From the NCBI GenBank assembly GCA_016703425.1, contig JADJCA010000011.1, forward strand, positions 250,050 to 314,049: DNA of 64,000 bases, in the 5' to 3' direction. Made by a program: the position numbers and the translations under genes. This DNA comes from Myxococcales bacterium. GTDB lineage: Bacteria > Myxococcota_A > Polyangia > Polyangiales > Polyangiaceae. Under the pieces are notes generated by a model. The model made no database searches, was not told where the DNA came from, and saw only the letters and a program-made list of their open reading frames with translations. Shown in pieces: positions 7,045 through 64,000 of the stretch. Each line of letters opens with the position of its first letter. The stretch's first letter is position 1.

Positions 7045-7557
7045 TTGCGAGGGGCGATGACGCGATCAACGACGGTTCGCGAGGCGCGCGACGCGTACCT
7101 CGCGGAGAACGGCTTCACCGTGGCCGGCTACGACGAACCCAAGACGGAAGCGTCGTTCATGGGGATTCGCTTCACGGTGCCAAACACGCCGCGGCATCGC
7201 TTCGCGATCATGCTCCACGACCTGCACCACGTGGCCACGGGCTTTGGAACCGACATCGTCGGCGAGGGGGAGATCTCCGCCTGGGAGCTGAGGCACATTC
7301 GAGCGCTCGGGTGGTACGTGGGCGGCATCGTGGCGCTCGGCGCTTTCGCCGGCGCCGCCGCGGCGCCGCGCCGCGCGTGGGCCGCGTTCCGCGGGATGCG
7401 CGGCAAGACCCTCTTTGACTTGGCCCGGACGGAAGCCGAATACGAAGCGCTGCTGGAGCTCGATGTGAGCGAGCTTCGACGGAGGCTGAACGTACCTCCG
7501 GACGGCCTTGCGCGGGGGCCGCGCCACCTGCACCGATACGCGCCGCCGCGGCCCTAG
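7045..7557 (+). CDS. Coq4-like protein (HDxxH-x11-E zinc motif)
   Basis: MLHDLHHVATGFGTDIVGEGE matches the Coq4-family HDxxH...E metal-binding motif; length about 170 aa. Confidence 0.4.
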   Translation: MRGAMTRSTTVREARDAYLAENGFTVAGYDEPKTEASFMGIRFTVPNTPRHRFAIMLHDLHHVATGFGTDIVGEGEISAWELRHIRALGWYVGGIVALGAFAGAAAAPRRAWAAFRGMRGKTLFDLARTEAEYEALLELDVSELRRRLNVPPDGLARGPRHLHRYAPPRP

Positions 7558-7597
7558 ATGGGCGTCGATTTTGTGATCCATCGGCGGTCCTCGGGCC

Positions 7598-8560
7598 ATG
7601 ATCGCCGCGATGAGTCAGAACGCGATGGCTTGCTCTCGCTGCGGTGCACCGACTTGGGCCGGTGCGGCATGCGCACGATGCGGAGCTCCGCCGGCGGGCG
7701 CCCCGGCGCAGGGGTATGGCCCTTCGCATGCCCAAGGCGCGCCGCCCAACGCCTATGGTCCGCCGGGCGCGCACGGCGGTCCCCCATTTGGAGCGGCCCC
7801 ACCGGGCCCAGGCCCCTACGGGGCGCCGGGTATGGCGGGCGGGATGGGCCCGGGCATGCCGGTGAACCCCGCCGCCGCGATGTTCGTAAACGCCATGGGT
7901 CAGGTGCCGGGGGCTGGCCGCAAGAGCAGCGTGCTTCCGATCCTTGGGGTCGTCTTGGTCGTGCTCCTCGTGGGTGCCGGGAGCGTCGCCTTCGCGTTCT
8001 TGAAAGGCAGCTTGTTCCAGCCCAAAGGAACGGCCAACGCGAAAGACTTCGGCATCGATCCCGCGAGGGCGACGCCCGAGGCGATCCTCACGGCCGCCAC
8101 CAAGCTCGCGAAGGGCTGGCGCTCCGACGCTCAATTCCGAGCGCTCTCCGTCAACGGCCTCCGTGTCGACGGCACCGTTGACCTCACATCGGGCAACGCG
8201 CAGGTCGAGTTTTTCTCTCCGTCGCGCGTCGCGGCCTTCACCGAGAAGGGGCGCCAAGATTCAGTGAAGAAGTTCGCCTTCAACAGCGAGCGCATCGTCT
8301 TCAAAGATCGCTGGGACGTGAAGAAGAAGCCTTGGAAGTTCGTGCAGGCCACGCCAACGCCGAGCTGCCCCAGCAGCGAGCTAGGCAAGGTTCTCAAGGC
8401 CGCCGGAGCGAAGGCCGACGCAAAGGGCATCCTCGCCGTTCATCCGCGTTATGGGGCGACCTACAAGGTGAACATGGGTCCCTTGAACAAGTGGTATTCG
8501 CTCACCGACTGCAAGGAGCTCTTCTCCGCCGGCAGCGGCTCCGCCGACGACGACGAATGA
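7598..8560 (+). CDS. Zinc-ribbon / Pro-Gly-rich / single-TM membrane protein, function unknown
   Basis: N-terminal CSRCG...CARCG zinc ribbon, a Pro/Gly-rich linker, one hydrophobic helix (VLPILGVVLVVLLVGAGSVAFAFL), then an extracytoplasmic domain of about 180 aa. Confidence 0.4.
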   Translation: MIAAMSQNAMACSRCGAPTWAGAACARCGAPPAGAPAQGYGPSHAQGAPPNAYGPPGAHGGPPFGAAPPGPGPYGAPGMAGGMGPGMPVNPAAAMFVNAMGQVPGAGRKSSVLPILGVVLVVLLVGAGSVAFAFLKGSLFQPKGTANAKDFGIDPARATPEAILTAATKLAKGWRSDAQFRALSVNGLRVDGTVDLTSGNAQVEFFSPSRVAAFTEKGRQDSVKKFAFNSERIVFKDRWDVKKKPWKFVQATPTPSCPSSELGKVLKAAGAKADAKGILAVHPRYGATYKVNMGPLNKWYSLTDCKELFSAGSGSADDDE

Positions 8561-8594
8561 GCGCGCGAAGACGCTGTCGGCTCCGTCCGACAGC

Positions 8595-9899
8595 TTGATG
8601 AGACGCGCTCACGGCGCAGACGTGAGCTACGTGTACCCTGCGCCCGTGGACGAGCCGAATCGCGCCATCGGCACCGCTTCGCTCCTCGCGCTCGGCGTCA
8701 ACGGCATCGTCGGCGTTGGCATTTTCTTCGCGCCATCGGCGCTCGCGGCGGAGGTCGGCGCGACGGGAAGCGTGCTCGTTCTCCTCGCGGTGGCCGCAGC
8801 CCTTGTGCCGGTGGCGCTTTGCTTCGCGATCTTAGGGAAACGTTTCCCTGTCGACGGCGGGCCCGTCGCGTTCGCGCGAGACGCCTTCGGGCCGCGCACC
8901 GCATTCGCCGTCGGTTGGCTCGCCTATGCGAGCGCGCTCTTCAGCTCTGCCGCCGTCGTGTCAGGCCTCGTTCAGGCGACCTTCGGCGCCGGCCCCAAGA
9001 GCACCGCGATCGCCGTGGGCGCGGCGCTGGTGCTCGCCGCGATCGTCGCGCTGGGCGTCGACGTGTCGAGGCGCGCGTGGTCGACACTCACCGCGCTGAA
9101 GCTCGCGCCGCTCGTCGCTTTGGCCTTCGTCTCCGTGGTCAGCACGCGAGTCGCTGAACCGGCGCCGGCGGACGCCGCTGTGTTCACCGCGAGCGGCGCG
9201 CTGCGCGCGGCGCTGACCGCATGTTTTGCCTTCCAGGGTTTCGAGATCATCCCGGTCATCGCAGGCCAGACGAAGCGCGTCGAGCGGGCCGTCCCGCGCG
9301 CCATCCTCGGCTCGCTGCTCTTCGCGGCAGCGCTCTACGCGCTGCTCCAGTGGGGCTTCGTTCGGTCCGGCGTGCCGCTGACGTCGACGGAACCGCTCGT
9401 CGACGCGGGCGCGCGGCTTTCGGGGCCCCGCTTCGGCGCGGTCTTGCGCGCGGGAACGAGCGTCTCGGCGCTGGGCATCGCCTTCGGAATGATGGTGACC
9501 ACGCCGCGCTACCTCTCGGCCGCCACCTCCGGTCGCCTCGCCGCGACCGATCGGCGCGGCGTGCCGCAGCGGGCGCTCTTCGTCACGGCGGTCGCCCTTG
9601 TCGGTCTCCTGACCTTCGCCCGCCTCGCCGAGCTCTTCGTTCTCTCGAGCCTGGCCGTCGTCATTCAATACGCGGCGGTCGCACTATCCCTCTTGCGGCT
9701 CGCGGCTCGGCGGCGCCACGGGCTCGGGCCGAAGCACTACCTGCCGGCCATCGCGACCCTCATCTTTTCCGTGACGCTCTTGGGCTCGCCCTCGGCGACG
9801 GAGTGGCGAGTCTTCGCGGCTCTCCTGGTGGTCGGCGTATTTGCGTACTTTTTTGCGGGGGTTCGGGGTACGCGCCGCGCCCAAGAGCCGCCCCCGTAA
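8595..9899 (+). CDS. APC-family amino acid/polyamine permease
   Basis: A 434-aa polytopic membrane protein with about 12 hydrophobic segments. The N-terminal pattern IGTASLLALGVNGIVGVGIFFAP is typical of APC transporters. Confidence 0.6.
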   Translation: MMRRAHGADVSYVYPAPVDEPNRAIGTASLLALGVNGIVGVGIFFAPSALAAEVGATGSVLVLLAVAAALVPVALCFAILGKRFPVDGGPVAFARDAFGPRTAFAVGWLAYASALFSSAAVVSGLVQATFGAGPKSTAIAVGAALVLAAIVALGVDVSRRAWSTLTALKLAPLVALAFVSVVSTRVAEPAPADAAVFTASGALRAALTACFAFQGFEIIPVIAGQTKRVERAVPRAILGSLLFAAALYALLQWGFVRSGVPLTSTEPLVDAGARLSGPRFGAVLRAGTSVSALGIAFGMMVTTPRYLSAATSGRLAATDRRGVPQRALFVTAVALVGLLTFARLAELFVLSSLAVVIQYAAVALSLLRLAARRRHGLGPKHYLPAIATLIFSVTLLGSPSATEWRVFAALLVVGVFAYFFAGVRGTRRAQEPPP

Positions 9900-34948: not shown

Positions 34949-37733
<2,785 letters not shown>

Positions 37734-60364: not shown

Positions 60365-60568
60365 GCAGGCGTCACGAAGCGCGTCGCCAGCTCCCCACTA
60401 AACAGCGCGTGGGCGGCGGCCCTCGGCGCACCCGTCTCCGACTGGAGACGGATCGCGAAGCTGGGTTCTGCTTGTCGCGTGCGATCCAGGACTTCACACC
60501 CATTTCGTCGAAATTCTCTCACCGTCGGCTTGCGCGGCCGTTGGCACATGACATGTAGGTCGCCCTTC

Positions 60569-61630
60569 ATGCCCCGCATCGCGCTATCCGTAGTTGTCCT
60601 CGCGTCCACCCTCGTCGCCGGCTGCAGCGCTGGGCGAGAGGAGGCTCCCGGCGAAACGGAAGACGCCCTCAGACGCCGCGTCGACGCCGAGTGGTTCTAC
60701 GACGGCGCGCTCCCCGCCCTCAGCGAGGCCAGCGTGGTCGTTTCGCTCAAGGGCCACACGGTCCGCGTCTCGGGCTTTGCGCCCGGCGGCACGAACGTCG
60801 CGAACCTTCCCCACGTCAAGTCGACGCGTGAGGGCGACCGGCTCCACGTCGACGTCGTCTACCCGATCGCTACGGCGCGCCCCGGCAAGAGCAACTCGCC
60901 ACCGGGCGAATACAACTTCCAGGGCGTGCGCCCCTACCGGCCCGACGGCACGGCTGTCACGCGCGACGAAGGCGAGCACTGGGTGCCCTGGGGCGGGTAC
61001 CCCTTCGTGGCTTACAACGGCGGCATCGCGTTCCACGGTCCCATCACGGCCAACGACGCGGCGCAAACGCTCGACGTGCCGGAGGACGACGTTTGGTACT
61101 TGCAGCGTGGGCCCGTCTCGGGCGGATGCAACCGCATGGCCGCCGAGCACATCGTCGAGTTCACGCACGTCATCGGCGTGTCGATGCGCAAGGTCTACGT
61201 TGCCAACAAGACCTACGCCGCCAACACGCCCACGAAGGTCACGGTCATCGACGACTACGACACCATCGGCGACAAGCTCGTCGACGTCGACTACCCGACG
61301 TGGACCGGCGCCGTACGCCCGAGCCTGGAGCACGGCTCAGAGAACGTGACGATGTTCGGCTCCTGGGTCGCCACCGAGACGCCCAACGGCACCGATCTGC
61401 CGCCCTCGATGAAGTGGGAAGGCGGCGTGCGAGGAAAATACTACGTCTTCTCGGAGCACGCGAAGACGGGCCTCGTTTGCTCCGTCGACAAGATCGATCT
61501 GCCCGCGCTCAAGAGCTTCGCGGCGCAGAAGTTCGGCGGCGAGCTGCCGAAGGGTTTCTGCCAAAAGCGCGACTGCGTCGTGAGCGCCTTGCGCAGCGGC
61601 GCCAACGCGAAGAGCGCCTGCGGCCTTTGA
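60569..61630 (+). CDS. L,D-transpeptidase (YkuD) domain lipoprotein
   Basis: ORF 60479..61630; ATG at 60569 gives lipobox VVVLASTLVAGCS. Catalytic motif GGIAFHGP ... SGGCNRM (the H-G ... S-x-G-C-x-R signature). Confidence 0.6.
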   Translation: MPRIALSVVVLASTLVAGCSAGREEAPGETEDALRRRVDAEWFYDGALPALSEASVVVSLKGHTVRVSGFAPGGTNVANLPHVKSTREGDRLHVDVVYPIATARPGKSNSPPGEYNFQGVRPYRPDGTAVTRDEGEHWVPWGGYPFVAYNGGIAFHGPITANDAAQTLDVPEDDVWYLQRGPVSGGCNRMAAEHIVEFTHVIGVSMRKVYVANKTYAANTPTKVTVIDDYDTIGDKLVDVDYPTWTGAVRPSLEHGSENVTMFGSWVATETPNGTDLPPSMKWEGGVRGKYYVFSEHAKTGLVCSVDKIDLPALKSFAAQKFGGELPKGFCQKRDCVVSALRSGANAKSACGL

Positions 61631-61643
61631 CGCGGCCGGACCG

Positions 61644-62642
61644 TCAGCGCTTCAAGAGGGCGCGCAAGACGACGAGCGGGTTGAAGCCGAGGAGTGACTC
61701 GACCTCGTAGCTCCCTACGGCGGCGCCCACGCGCTCCTTCAGCAGACCGAAGGCCGGCTCGAAGAGACCGAAGCTGTCGAAGCGAGAGATCAACGCGCGT
61801 GCGTTTTCGGCGACGACGCGCGCGCCGTCGAAGCCGAGCGCTGCGGCGATGGCTGTGGGGAGCGGCGAGAGGATCACGTCGCGTACGGTAACGGCGCGGC
61901 TCCAGGCGCCGGGCCGCGGATCGACGGCCAGCTCGCGGAAGAAGTCGAACTCGGCGAAGCAACCGAGCGAAAGAGGTCCGTAGGTCTCTTCAACGGCGCG
62001 TACCAGGTAGCGCTGATCGCGACGAAAGTCGCCCGAGAGCAAACCCACCTGGGCGCGCAGATTGTCGGGGCCCGCGACGAGATCGAAGAGCGTGCCCTTC
62101 CGACGCAAGACGAGCGACGTGTAGAGATCCTCGTCTTTGAACATGCCGAGGCACATCACGTGGCCGTCGCGGCACAAGGTGTCGAGCGTGCGGTGGACCA
62201 TCGTCGCCGACGGAACGGGAACCCCCTTCAAGCGCTCGGGCCAACGCTCGATGATCCCGGCTTCCATGAGTTCGCGAACCACGGCGACGAGCTTGAGCGA
62301 CTGATCAAGGAAATCGTCACTTGCGCGGCATCGCGCGCCGAACCGCTCCATGAGCTCTTCGAGGCCGTGATGCTCGAGCCCCAGCGCCCAACTGCCGCTG
62401 TGCATCTCGCACAAGGCCTCGAGCGACGGCGCCGTCTCGCCAGCGACGAAAGGCGGCGGCTCGATGCGCCCCTTGCCGGTGTGAAGGAGTTTGCGAACGC
62501 GCCCGCCGTCGCGAATGGCGATGATGCCGCCCCTCGGCCGCGACGATTCGCGCTCCAGCGGCGCGCGCGGCTTGAAGAGGGCGAGCAGGCGACGCCAGTC
62601 TTCCGTGGTCCACCCCTCGAAGCGGACGTTCGCGGTCAGCAC
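61644..62642 (-). CDS. Hypothetical 332-aa protein, divergent from the candidate RiPP precursor gene
   Basis: Continuous ORF with GC3-rich codons and no recognisable motif. It shares a 240-bp intergenic region with the precursor-peptide gene. Confidence 0.4.
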   Translation of the reverse strand: MLTANVRFEGWTTEDWRRLLALFKPRAPLERESSRPRGGIIAIRDGGRVRKLLHTGKGRIEPPPFVAGETAPSLEALCEMHSGSWALGLEHHGLEELMERFGARCRASDDFLDQSLKLVAVVRELMEAGIIERWPERLKGVPVPSATMVHRTLDTLCRDGHVMCLGMFKDEDLYTSLVLRRKGTLFDLVAGPDNLRAQVGLLSGDFRRDQRYLVRAVEETYGPLSLGCFAEFDFFRELAVDPRPGAWSRAVTVRDVILSPLPTAIAAALGFDGARVVAENARALISRFDSFGLFEPAFGLLKERVGAAVGSYEVESLLGFNPLVVLRALLKR

Positions 62643-62741
62643 GGGTGCGAGTATGCGCCTAGTTTTGACGCGGCGGCAAAGGCGAGGCGCACTCCCGCAA
62701 TGGTTCTGAGGGGTTGCTCATGCCCGCGAGGACTGGCGCCG

Positions 62742-62761
62742 ACCAGTAGCCACCAGTAGCC
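62742..62761. repeat. Perfect 10-bp tandem direct repeat (ACCAGTAGCC x2) in the divergent intergenic region
   Basis: Read directly: gACCAGTAGCCACCAGTAGCCaaatgg. It lies about 125 nt upstream of the peptide start and about 100 nt upstream of the divergent gene. Confidence 0.8.
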
Positions 62762-62884
62762 AAATGGGCGACCGCGATGCGTCGACGCGCTTGCGCATGG
62801 TCATGCGATGCGAAAGCGGACGAAGGGAGGAGACGCTTGTCAGATTGGCCGAGGCTTGACTCGGCCGTCCCCAAGGAGAACGCC

Positions 62885-63001
62885 GTGAAGAAGAACTACA
62901 CGAAGCCCGTCATCGTCCAGCTCGGCAACGTTGCCAACATCAAGAGCAACTCAACTGGCCCGAGCAGCGACGGGAAGAAGTACGCCGGCTTCTTCAAGTG
63001 A
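62885..63001 (+). CDS. Candidate RiPP (lasso-peptide-like) precursor peptide, 38 aa
   Basis: AAGGAG Shine-Dalgarno 6 nt before GTG 62885. Product MKKNYTKPVIVQLGNVANIKSNSTGPSSDGKKYAGFFK. GC3 is about 92% despite a Lys/Asn-rich composition. The leader carries Y-x-x-P-x-I-x3-G, resembling the lasso YxxPxLxxxG recognition motif. The C-terminal STGPSSD...YAGFFK could form a Ser1-Asp7 macrolactam with a Tyr/Phe plug. Confidence 0.5.
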   Translation: MKKNYTKPVIVQLGNVANIKSNSTGPSSDGKKYAGFFK

Positions 63002-64000
63002 CCGAAGCGCGACGCGCGGACCCGGGCGGACGTTCGTCCCGGTCCGCGGCGCCGCGACTTCGCTTCACGGCGACTTGAAAGTCGCGCCACCAGACGAGGT
63101 AGCCGAGCAGCGTGAGCACGGCGCGCGTGGCGCTCGTTTGAACGCCAAAGGTGAGCTGCTCGAAGGACTCGGCGAGCCCCCTCCGATCGACCCAAGGCCC
63201 GTCGACCCAAGGTGCCGTCCCTTGATCGCGCAATGCGTCCGACGAGGCCATGAGGTCCACGAAGGCGGCGTGATTCTTCTTGAGGAAGTCGGAGCGGAAC
63301 GAATCGAAGACGAAGGTGTCGTGGGCGCGGTTGCGAAGCTCTTCCGGGACGATGCCCTCTTGCGCGACCCGGAGGAGCTCTTTGTATCGCCCTCGGAAGT
63401 CATGAACCAGGTGAACGCTGATCTCGCCGTAGACGTAGTCCATGAGCGGAAGGTCGCAATAGGGCGACTCCTCGCGGATCTGCTTCGGAGCCATGAAGGG
63501 CGCGTAGACCGCGGTGCTGGCGGCGAGGTACGCGAGGTCGTCGCAGACGATGCCATCGCCAATCAGTCGAGCGTCAGCCGCGAGGCGGAGGCTTTCGACG
63601 CGCTCGAGGCCCTCGGCCGAGGCCATTTCCCCGCCCCGCAGCCACGGTACCGTCGAGCGCACCTCCCAATCGGGATTCACGTCGCCCACGTAGAACGGAT
63701 TCAGGCGCCGGCCAGCGAAGGGGCGGACGAGCTTCCGATAACCCGAACGCGGCAACATCGAGAGCGCCGTTTGGAGCGCGAGGCTCGCCTCGGAACGTTG
63801 CGCGTAGCGCGCGAAGTCGCGGAGCACCGCGGCCCCTTCGCGCAAGAGCCCTTGCCGAAGCAGGTGCGGCACGACGCGCGGAGAACGCAAGAAGAGCTGA
63901 TCGGCGCCGAAGCCGTTGAACAGCGTCGACGCGGGCTGAAGCCGCGCGGCAGCGGCGCGGCCGAACATCTGACCGAACCAGAAGAAGTCGCTCGGCTCGT
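62994..64000 (-). CDS. Asparagine synthetase (AsnB)-like protein, C-terminal part (truncated by window end); candidate lasso cyclase (C protein)
   Basis: ORF runs to the window edge. FNGFGADQLF matches the AsnB synthetase-domain GADE(I/L)FGGY motif. The stop overlaps the peptide gene stop by 8 nt (convergent). Confidence 0.55.
   Translation of the reverse strand, partial: EPSDFFWFGQMFGRAAAARLQPASTLFNGFGADQLFLRSPRVVPHLLRQGLLREGAAVLRDFARYAQRSEASLALQTALSMLPRSGYRKLVRPFAGRRLNPFYVGDVNPDWEVRSTVPWLRGGEMASAEGLERVESLRLAADARLIGDGIVCDDLAYLAASTAVYAPFMAPKQIREESPYCDLPLMDYVYGEISVHLVHDFRGRYKELLRVAQEGIVPEELRNRAHDTFVFDSFRSDFLKKNHAAFVDLMASSDALRDQGTAPWVDGPWVDRRGLAESFEQLTFGVQTSATRAVLTLLGYLVWWRDFQVAVKRSRGAADRDERPPGSARRASVT

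Follow-up and report, generated by a model that had tools for sequence, protein, structure and literature searches.

What is encoded at the end of this stretch of DNA, where a very short open reading frame (ORF) runs tail to tail into a gene resembling those of asparagine synthetases? The stretch (hereafter, the window) comprises 64,000 nucleotides of the Myxococcales bacterium contig JADJCA010000011.1, and the locus in question lies at its right-hand end. A preliminary description, made from the window alone, had proposed a lasso peptide locus, in which the gene of a 38-residue precursor (A) converges on the gene of a lasso cyclase (C). This interpretation is supported by the cyclase itself, by the genes of the leader-binding protein (B1) and the leader protease (B2) next to it, and by the conservation of the peptide. 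We are highly confident that a complete minimal lasso cassette, made up of A, C, B2 and B1, exists in this Myxococcota (Polyangiaceae-like) genome and that the locus is its precursor end. Since a close relative of the window has B2 and B1 beside C, the window can be considered to hold A and the 3′ half of C of the full cassette.

Cyclase and leader-processing genes

The gene on the minus strand (62994–64000) is cut by the window edge, so that only the C-terminal 334 of 626 residues are encoded. As the preliminary description had noted, it is asparagine synthetase-like and carries a GADxLF motif (FGADQLFL). On its own, the fragment matches the Asn_synthase family PF00733 (E = 1e-4) and the lasso macrolactam cyclase model NF033561 (E = 4e-6). 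It is also 100% identical to residues 293–626 of an NCBI protein of 626 amino acids (P0001) from a ‘Myxococcales bacterium’ metagenome-assembled genome (MAG). The full-length cyclase encoded on the relative contig L001 (see below) scores 55.8 bits with PF00733 (cut-off 21), and its best NCBIfam match is NF033561 (E = 5.5e-20). Two motifs, the ATP-pyrophosphatase motif SGGLDSS and FGADQLF, are invariant in 28 homologs. In the 28-sequence alignment no column after F599 is invariant, and conservation is lacking over the last ~27 residues. In total, more than 140 homologs share 40–51% sequence identity with the cyclase.

Might this nevertheless be a housekeeping asparagine synthetase B, as the preliminary description had allowed for? 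The N-terminus reads MHLPDSF, with His and not Cys at position 2; no glutaminase (GATase) domain could be matched in the full sequence; and the score with TIGR01536 is 60 bits against a cut-off of 267. A housekeeping enzyme is thus ruled out, and the assignment as lasso cyclase stands.

The relative that reveals the rest of the cassette is a stretch (L001) of contig CAXWNY010000014.1 from another Myxococcales MAG (GCA_964269505.1). Over the 1.4 kb compared, L001 and the window are 99% identical, the peptide gene is the same to the letter, and the neighboring ORF of 332 residues (61644–62642 of the window, minus strand) is encoded identically on that contig. In L001 the complete cyclase gene (7779–9659) is preceded directly, on the opposite strand, by two genes. 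The first (7318–7773), divergent from C, codes for the transglutaminase-like protease B2 (NF033537, 66.2 bits with a cut-off of 33; PF13471, 65.3 bits), whose Cys (in ECLDQA) and His (in GHAWV) line up with their counterparts in BsfB2, a protein characterized biochemically. The second (7064–7321) codes for the PqqD-like leader-binding protein B1 (PF05402, 37.4 bits with a cut-off of 23.4). With the B1-specific model NF033530 it scores 49.9 bits (E = 2.8e-13), below the cut-off of 70. Among proteins of solved structure, B1 matches TbiB1 (5v1u, E = 8e-4), which binds lasso leaders, and shows a weak match to TfuB1 (6jx3). Projected onto the window's contig, the two genes are expected ~0.9–1.6 kb past position 64000, with B2 at 0.9–1.3 kb. 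The preliminary description was right that no B gene lies inside the window, and the B2 and B1 genes that it suggested looking for upstream of C are both present on L001.

Window and L001 differ in one short part of the cyclase gene. At ~63195–63246 (minus strand) there are ~10 substitutions within ~50 nt, changing ASSDALRDQGTA to ATSDVLRDQGTG, while the rest of the 1.4-kb alignment contains two other substitutions only. The cluster looks like a small recombination patch or an assembly effect of a strain mixture.

The precursor gene

Gene A occupies 62885–63001 on the plus strand. It starts with GTG at 62885, comprises 38 codons and the stop codon TGA (62999–63001), and its translation is VKKNYTKPVIVQLGNVANIKSNSTGPSSDGKKYAGFFK. 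The Shine-Dalgarno sequence AAGGAG (62873–62878) is found, as described before, at a 6-nt distance from the start codon. AAGGAG had also been called rare in this DNA, which does not hold: both strands of the window contain 42 copies. What is rare is its combination with ATG or GTG 4–9 nt downstream, occurring six times only. The earlier estimate of ~92% G+C at third codon positions agrees with our count (35 of 38). First and second positions have 39 and 37%, respectively, and the other two frames over the same stretch have 37–39% at third positions, in a window of 68% G+C. This is a clear coding signature.

The start codon deserves a comment. The public gene call for the precursor on L001 begins at an upstream TTG (equivalent to 62837 of the window) and yields 54 residues. 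We prefer GTG 62885, because many homologs are 37–38 residues long and begin with a Met aligned exactly with it. In addition, GGAGG-type sites precede homologous precursor genes at the equivalent place. The longer public call also explains why an exact database look-up of the 38-residue peptide returned no match.

In its N-terminal half the peptide reads Y5-x-x-P8-x-I10-x3-G14, so that the leader motif of the type Y-x-x-P-x-L-x3-G pointed out earlier is indeed present. Residues 1–19 match the lasso model NF033528, although weakly (E = 1e-3).

Distribution and conservation of the peptide family

When an alignment of 40 columns was used as the query, the profile search retrieved 72 peptide clusters with E-values from 2e-14 to 3e-21, none of them named beyond ‘hypothetical’. 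Altogether there are ~100 near-identical peptides, all unnamed. We then considered the loci from the side of the cyclase. A genome scan covering one genome per species yielded 26 loci with a cyclase at least 41% identical, and four more (L002–L005) were fetched by exact protein look-up. At the level of at least 40% cyclase identity, the same peptide gene accompanies the cyclase in 30 of 30 loci (26/26 and 4/4, respectively). The preliminary description had made its reading depend on such recurrence in orthologous loci, and it is complete. In one case, Afipia carboxidovorans OM5, the peptide gene is uncalled in the locus table, and yet a different record for the species lists the same sequence under OCAR_7491, a hypothetical protein. 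Judged by the profile matches and by its presence at every related cyclase locus examined, the precursor ORF is far beyond chance.

The hosts of the 30 loci are Polyangiaceae and Alpha-, Beta- and Gammaproteobacteria; the scan loci belong to Polyangiaceae, Afipia, Bradyrhizobium, Xanthobacteraceae, Beijerinckiaceae, Hyphomicrobiales, Solimonas, Orrella and Azonexus. No gene other than A, C, B1 and B2 is common to the loci, and the genes flanking the cassette in the window are not conserved. The position of A varies. In 18 of the 26 scan loci, as well as in L002 and L003, A directly adjoins the 3′ end of C in convergent orientation. In 7/26 the two genes share a strand, A being found 4.6–5.0 kb upstream, and in the remaining one A is elsewhere.

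The family consensus is M-K-K-Y-x-K-P-x-h-h-(K/Q)-L-G-x4-(I/V)-(K/R)-(S/G/A)-N-(A/H/S/N)-(T/S)-G-P-S-(S/T/V)-D-G-(K/R)-x-Y-(A/S)-G-(F/Y/N/V)-F-K. Across 31 aligned homologs, Y5, K and P8 of the leader are invariant. The curated NCBIfam models of lasso precursors match just five of these 31 sequences, all below threshold. They miss the family probably because it lacks Thr at position −2 of the leader. A full-text literature search for core strings (KKYAGFFK and others) returned no paper.

These data also bear on the view that the locus does not encode a RiPP (a peptide of ribosomal origin that is modified post-translationally) at all, the short ORF being spurious and the AsnB-like gene coding for an amidotransferase with a housekeeping role or one in a polysaccharide pathway. 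The window by itself would leave some room for it, as both the partial cyclase (E = 1e-4 with PF00733) and the peptide (E = 1e-3 with the lasso model) give weak matches. However, the enzyme has neither Cys2 nor a glutaminase domain, B2 and B1 adjoin it, the peptide gene is present in 30/30 loci with profile E-values down to 3e-21, and the periodicity at third codon positions is strong. We regard this view as contradicted and almost certainly wrong.

Beyond the family, we observed more distant relatives. A sister lasso family (L032–L041; for example, L032 7507–7602 and L041 7435–7530) occurs in MAGs of Bdellovibrio, Oligoflexales and Polynucleobacter. Its cyclases are 29–31% identical to the window cyclase, A and C share a strand with A upstream, and the precursors follow the pattern M..Y(K/Q)KP.hVKLG....IKG(N/S)(R/K)NVKSD(G/F/M)TTVG(F/Y)(L/M). 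An exhaustive profile search over 1.84 billion representatives added a single distant relative, P0197 (L086 4930–5262), and a follow-up search with P0197 gave no further members. P0197 is a 110-residue ORF in which two precursor-like peptides, YRAPTLVRYGRIESITSGQTGPDGDGKSG... and YRKPALVRYGRVEAITAGSTGTFTDGKSG..., are fused. It directly follows the gene of a short cyclase (467 residues) and an ABC exporter on a singleton metagenome contig labeled 2x. The G-D-G around the Asp in its peptides recalls the triculamin-type motif.

The boundary between leader and core

Where does the leader end? Asp29 is invariant and is the only acidic residue among the C-terminal 25. As the sole possible ring acceptor, it limits the first core residue to S21, N22 or S23, with rings of 9, 8 or 7 residues, respectively. 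The corresponding dehydrated monoisotopic masses are predicted to be 1858.885, 1771.853 and 1657.810 Da.

We favor cleavage after Ile19-Lys20, giving it roughly an even chance. The predicted leader would then comprise residues 1–20 (62885–62944), and the predicted core would be the 18-residue SNSTGPSSDGKKYAGFFK (62945–62998) with a Ser1-Asp9 ring. Three features of the alignments point in this direction. Column 19 is Ile or Val throughout the family. At column 21, Ser, Gly or Ala occurs in the family, and the sister family has Gly (...IK↓G(N/S)(R/K)NVKSD..., the arrow marking the cut). Moreover, cleavage after Ile-Lys yields a Gly1-Asp8 ring in the sister family and a Ser/Gly/Ala1-Asp9 ring in the family of the window. 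There is also an experimental parallel, since BsfA of Bradymonas sediminis has been shown to be cleaved at ...AAIIR↓GTSGNEVD, with Ile at −2 (PMC10368454).

Not everything agrees with this boundary. It puts the leader Tyr at −16, the canonical position being −17. P0197, which aligns with the family without gaps, has Thr in column 20 and Gly in column 22, favoring Asn22 as residue 1. Both points speak for the same lasso system with a leader ending at Ser21 (62947), that is, for the core NSTGPSSDGKKYAGFFK with an Asn1-Asp8 ring and Lys at −2. In this register the canonical spacing is restored (Tyr at −17, Pro at −14, a hydrophobic residue at −12 and Gly at −8). Both P0197 peptides, which have Ser or Ala in column 21, read Thr(−2)/Gly1/Asp8 and are fully canonical. 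Asn22 is invariant in the family, and Asn as the first ring residue has one experimental precedent, metanodin (PMC12670498). However, Lys or Arg at −2 is without precedent in the literature compared, where Thr and, rarely, Ile, Val or Ala are described (PMC10368454). In the sister family the same register would produce a 7-residue ring starting from Asn or Ser instead of the plain Gly1-Asp8 ring. P0197, for its part, is a singleton from a contig labeled 2x, and its cyclase of 467 residues is only weakly similar to that of the window. We therefore see cleavage after Ser21 as a real possibility, if a somewhat less probable one than cleavage after Ile19-Lys20.

The third register is the one proposed originally: the core STGPSSDGKKYAGFFK with a seven-residue Ser1-Asp7 ring and Ser at −2. 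Taken in isolation, it is reasonable, as Asp7 is within the allowed ring sizes, Ser is accepted as residue 1, and Ser resembles Thr at −2. The homologs argue otherwise. Among ~100 of them residue 1 would be A, H, S or N, −2 would be S, G or A, and −1 would be the invariant Asn; His1 and Gly(−2) fit no lasso precursor described in the literature compared. In the sister family this register leaves just 5–6 residues before the Asp. Start at S23 is the least supported of the three and, in our opinion, very improbable; the homologs favor a start at S21 or N22.

Proposed maturation pathway

The assignments above suggest the following pathway, for which the enzyme identities rest on homology and every chemical step is inferred. 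The 38-residue precursor would be translated from its own monocistronic unit, having a strong ribosome-binding site and a hairpin at the stop codon (see below). B1 would bind the leader through Y5-x-x-P8-x-I10 and present it to B2, which, as a transglutaminase-like cysteine protease, would remove it, most likely by a cut after Ile19-Lys20 and alternatively after Ser21. The asparagine synthetase-like C would then adenylate the side chain of Asp29 with ATP and link it to the amine of the newly formed N-terminus, so that a ring of 9 (alternatively 8) residues closes around the tail GKKYAGFFK, with the Tyr and Phe residues of the tail as candidate steric plugs. The expected product is a cationic lasso peptide of ~1.86 kDa (alternatively 1.77 kDa). 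The predicted core has three Lys residues, its only Asp is used in the ring, and it is almost invariant among the ~100 homologs in two phyla.

Convergent arrangement of A and C

As described originally, A and C are convergent and their stop regions overlap by 8 nt (TCAAGTGA, 62994–63001, both strands), the minus-strand ORF ending at 62994. The identical overlap recurs in L002, L003, L006, L009 and L013. It might be taken for a conserved regulatory design, an idea that we set aside, since the conserved codons account for the TGA. From the sequences, the most plausible explanation of the overlap is that the Phe-Lys-stop codons, conserved at the C-terminus, produce it as a by-product: the reverse complement of TTC-AAG-T(G/A)A contains TGA. 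Any C frame that reaches into A in that phase ends at this TGA, and therefore the same 8 nt recur across loci. The design that is really conserved would seem to be a convergent, separately terminated A gene.

A long G+C-rich hairpin (62998–63068) begins on the third base of the last Lys codon, just one base ahead of the stop codon of A. It has a minimum free energy of −54.3 kcal/mol (z = −3.9), and none of 200 shuffled sequences was as stable. It falls within the last ~25 codons of the cyclase gene, in the non-conserved 3′ tail, and is a candidate terminator or stabilizer of the precursor transcript. Our terminator scan of 62500–63300 called nothing; it requires a T-run, which the hairpin lacks and so was missed, and it may be inapplicable to this phylum. 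In the window A and C are not separated by a gap. Where a gap exists, a G+C-rich hairpin with a T-run directly follows the stop codon of A in most loci and looks like a classic terminator between convergent genes.

Upstream, the intergenic region 62643–62884 separates A from the divergent 332-residue ORF and presumably holds the precursor's own promoter (plus strand). No σ70 consensus was detected in a promoter scan of 62500–63300, which depends on σ70 hexamers and may likewise be inapplicable to this phylum. An Rfam scan of 61500–64000 gave nothing meaningful. The region contains a perfect 10-bp tandem duplication (ACCAGTAGCC x2.1) at 62742–62762. As the 99%-identical L001 has a single copy, the sequences point to a strain-level indel in the putative promoter region.

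Export, tailoring and the strength of the assignment

Next to the cassette (window and L001 flanks) we found no gene for a kinase, methyltransferase, acetyltransferase, isopeptidase or exporter. Kinase domains are also absent from the genes flanking the cassette on L001 and in L002–L005. The flanking ORFs of 226, 317, 332 and 353 residues were considered as tailoring or export genes and rejected, as they match no family and none of them accompanies the cluster in other loci. A protein-L-isoaspartate O-methyltransferase-like gene (PF01135) is present near the cluster in 4 of the 30 loci (L004 975–1892; L018, L019 and L022). All four have A upstream of C, and the gene is absent from the locus of the window; its product is a possible tailoring enzyme of that subgroup.

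Several observations weigh against the lasso assignment or limit its reach. Expression, cleavage, cyclization and threading are predictions from the sequence. On lasso-specific NCBIfam models the cyclase scores 71.5 bits against a cut-off of 300, and the peptide, too, is below the cut-offs of such curated models. None of the three boundaries provides the canonical Thr at −2, which would be Ile19, Lys20 or Ser21. The B1 and B2 genes are seen on the 99%-identical L001, the window ending 0.9 kb short of both. Finally, no exporter adjoins the cassette, whereas an ABC_membrane/ABC_tran homolog is found within 8 kb in 26 of the 30 relatives; the nearest exporter-like gene in the window (~36250–37179) is 26 kb away. 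As to Thr at −2, it is typical rather than obligatory in lasso precursors, since exceptions are documented: Ile was shown in BsfA, and Ile, Val or Ala are predicted in others (PMC10368454).

Because an adjacent exporter is missing, the cassette could be silent or its product not exported. Taken further, the cassette may be an inactive or silent remnant, its genes intact but no mature peptide leaving the cell without the dedicated ABC exporter of the relatives. Besides the lack of an exporter in both the window and L001, this agrees with flanking genes that have no relation to the cluster at other loci, and with the related bsf cluster, which was silent in every host tried (PMC10368454). On the other hand, all four ORFs are intact with their catalytic motifs kept, the peptide is identical in two diverged strains, the ribosome-binding site and the hairpin are preserved, and four other loci of the family likewise have no exporter match. 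A remnant seems unlikely to us.

Comparison with known lasso systems

The closest general counterparts of the cassette are lasso clusters with a split B (B1/B2), such as those of fusilassin/fuscanodin (Thermobifida fusca) and TbiA/TbiB1 (Thermobaculum terrenum), which likewise combine a Y-x-x-P-x-L precursor, a PqqD-like B1, a transglutaminase-like B2 and an asparagine synthetase-like C. Unlike in these systems, the window precursor lacks Thr at −2, A faces C tail to tail and is not the first gene of the operon, and the cyclase is far below the cut-offs of the curated lasso cyclase models. The hosts are also different: Actinomycetota and Chloroflexota in one case, Myxococcota and Pseudomonadota in the other.

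With the Bsf system the similarity is more specific. The leader of BsfA ends in Ile-Arg followed by a small residue (...AAIIR↓GTSGNEVD), comparable to Ile-Lys and Ser in the window (...VANIK↓SNSTGPSSD) (PMC10368454). The B protein is split in both, the Cys and His of B2 align, and the hosts are related (deltaproteobacterial in the old sense). However, the Tyr of BsfA is at −17, the Tyr of the window peptide would be at −16, and the cores are unrelated. Furthermore, all clusters with Ile or Val at −2 reported together with BsfA encode a kinase, and their peptides are phosphorylated (PMC10368454). In contrast to these Bsf- and paeninodin-type clusters, which have an HPr-kinase-like enzyme, neither the locus of the window nor its relatives were found to contain a kinase or another tailoring gene.

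A Tyr of BsfB1 (in ...NEYFGLN) has been discussed in the literature as contacting Thr at −2. According to a six-sequence alignment, B1 proteins of the window's family have Thr or Ser at this position (GDTFGLS, GDTYGLN, GESYGLN). This replacement might relate to the non-Thr residue at −2.

Metanodin, from a soil metagenome, provides the precedent for Asn1 that cleavage after Ser21 would require, and its precursor, too, was missed by automated annotation (PMC12670498). Unlike the window locus, it keeps Thr at −2 and has the classical A-B-C organization without a split B; its core, with a nine-residue ring and the tail NIQGDHGLNI, is unrelated (PMC12670498).

The ribosome-targeting peptides triculamin, lariocidin and gelatinamin resemble the predicted core in layout. 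They share an 18-residue cationic core, a small residue 1, Pro6 (in the favored register) and Asp-Gly followed by basic residues, and their core, as in the window family, is conserved across phyla. The triculamin-like motif is defined by a nearly invariant Pro-Gly-Asp-Gly at the ring Asp8 and many basic residues (10.1101/2024.12.20.629632; PMC13178200). The window core has G-P-S-(S/T/V)-D-G and three Lys, but not Pro-Gly-Asp-Gly, and the favored boundary does not give an 8-residue ring. According to their description, leaders of the canonical triculamin-like type are without the Y/P/L/T motif; the window leader has Y-x-x-P. Also unlike the triculamin type, no acetyltransferase or clostripain-like gene is near the window cassette. 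We treat the resemblance, which concerns the layout of the peptide, as a lead and not as a finding.

Implications of the family

Lasso peptides form knotted, stable scaffolds, and antibiotic as well as receptor-binding activities are known among them. The peptides described here are an uncharacterized member family of this well-known system rather than a new kind of system. Three features of the family are modestly unusual: position −2 carries a residue other than Thr in the absence of a kinase, the A gene is convergent, and the core is conserved between two phyla. Bacteria of soil and water carry the family in abundance (Bradyrhizobium, Afipia, Xanthobacteraceae, Solimonas, Polyangiaceae), and it amounts to ~100 overlooked clusters annotated as ‘hypothetical protein’. 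It would widen the range of residues known to be accepted by the leader protease at −2; should cleavage occur after Ser21, it would provide the second example of Asn as the first ring residue. According to a published statement in the literature on triculamin-like lasso peptides, families of lasso peptides are typically confined to a single phylum. A near-invariant core across two phyla is unusual in this respect, and with such conservation the family is a reasonable choice for efforts to identify a target.

A bolder reading may be put forward, which we think is quite improbable as a whole. The locus would belong to an unrecognized lasso family of two phyla, in which the almost invariant 18-residue core acts on a single conserved target and is not an arms-race antibiotic, and in which B1 and B2 accept a non-Thr residue (Ile or Lys) at −2 without a kinase. 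A single target would follow from a core that has hardly changed although the identity of the cyclases has dropped to 40–50%. The target could be the ribosome, given the loose lariocidin/triculamin-like layout (small residue 1, Pro6, Asp-Gly-Lys-Lys, 18 residues).

Neighboring genes

By composition, we saw no sign of recent horizontal transfer, as the G+C content of the cassette (0.65–0.69) matches that of its flanks. The two ORFs preceding it in the window are not conserved beside the lasso cluster elsewhere. For the nearer one (61644–62642, minus strand; 332 residues) there was no match at all. The farther one (60479–61630, plus strand) encodes a lipoprotein-like sequence of 383 residues with a sub-threshold match to the YkuD L,D-transpeptidase domain (E = 2e-3).

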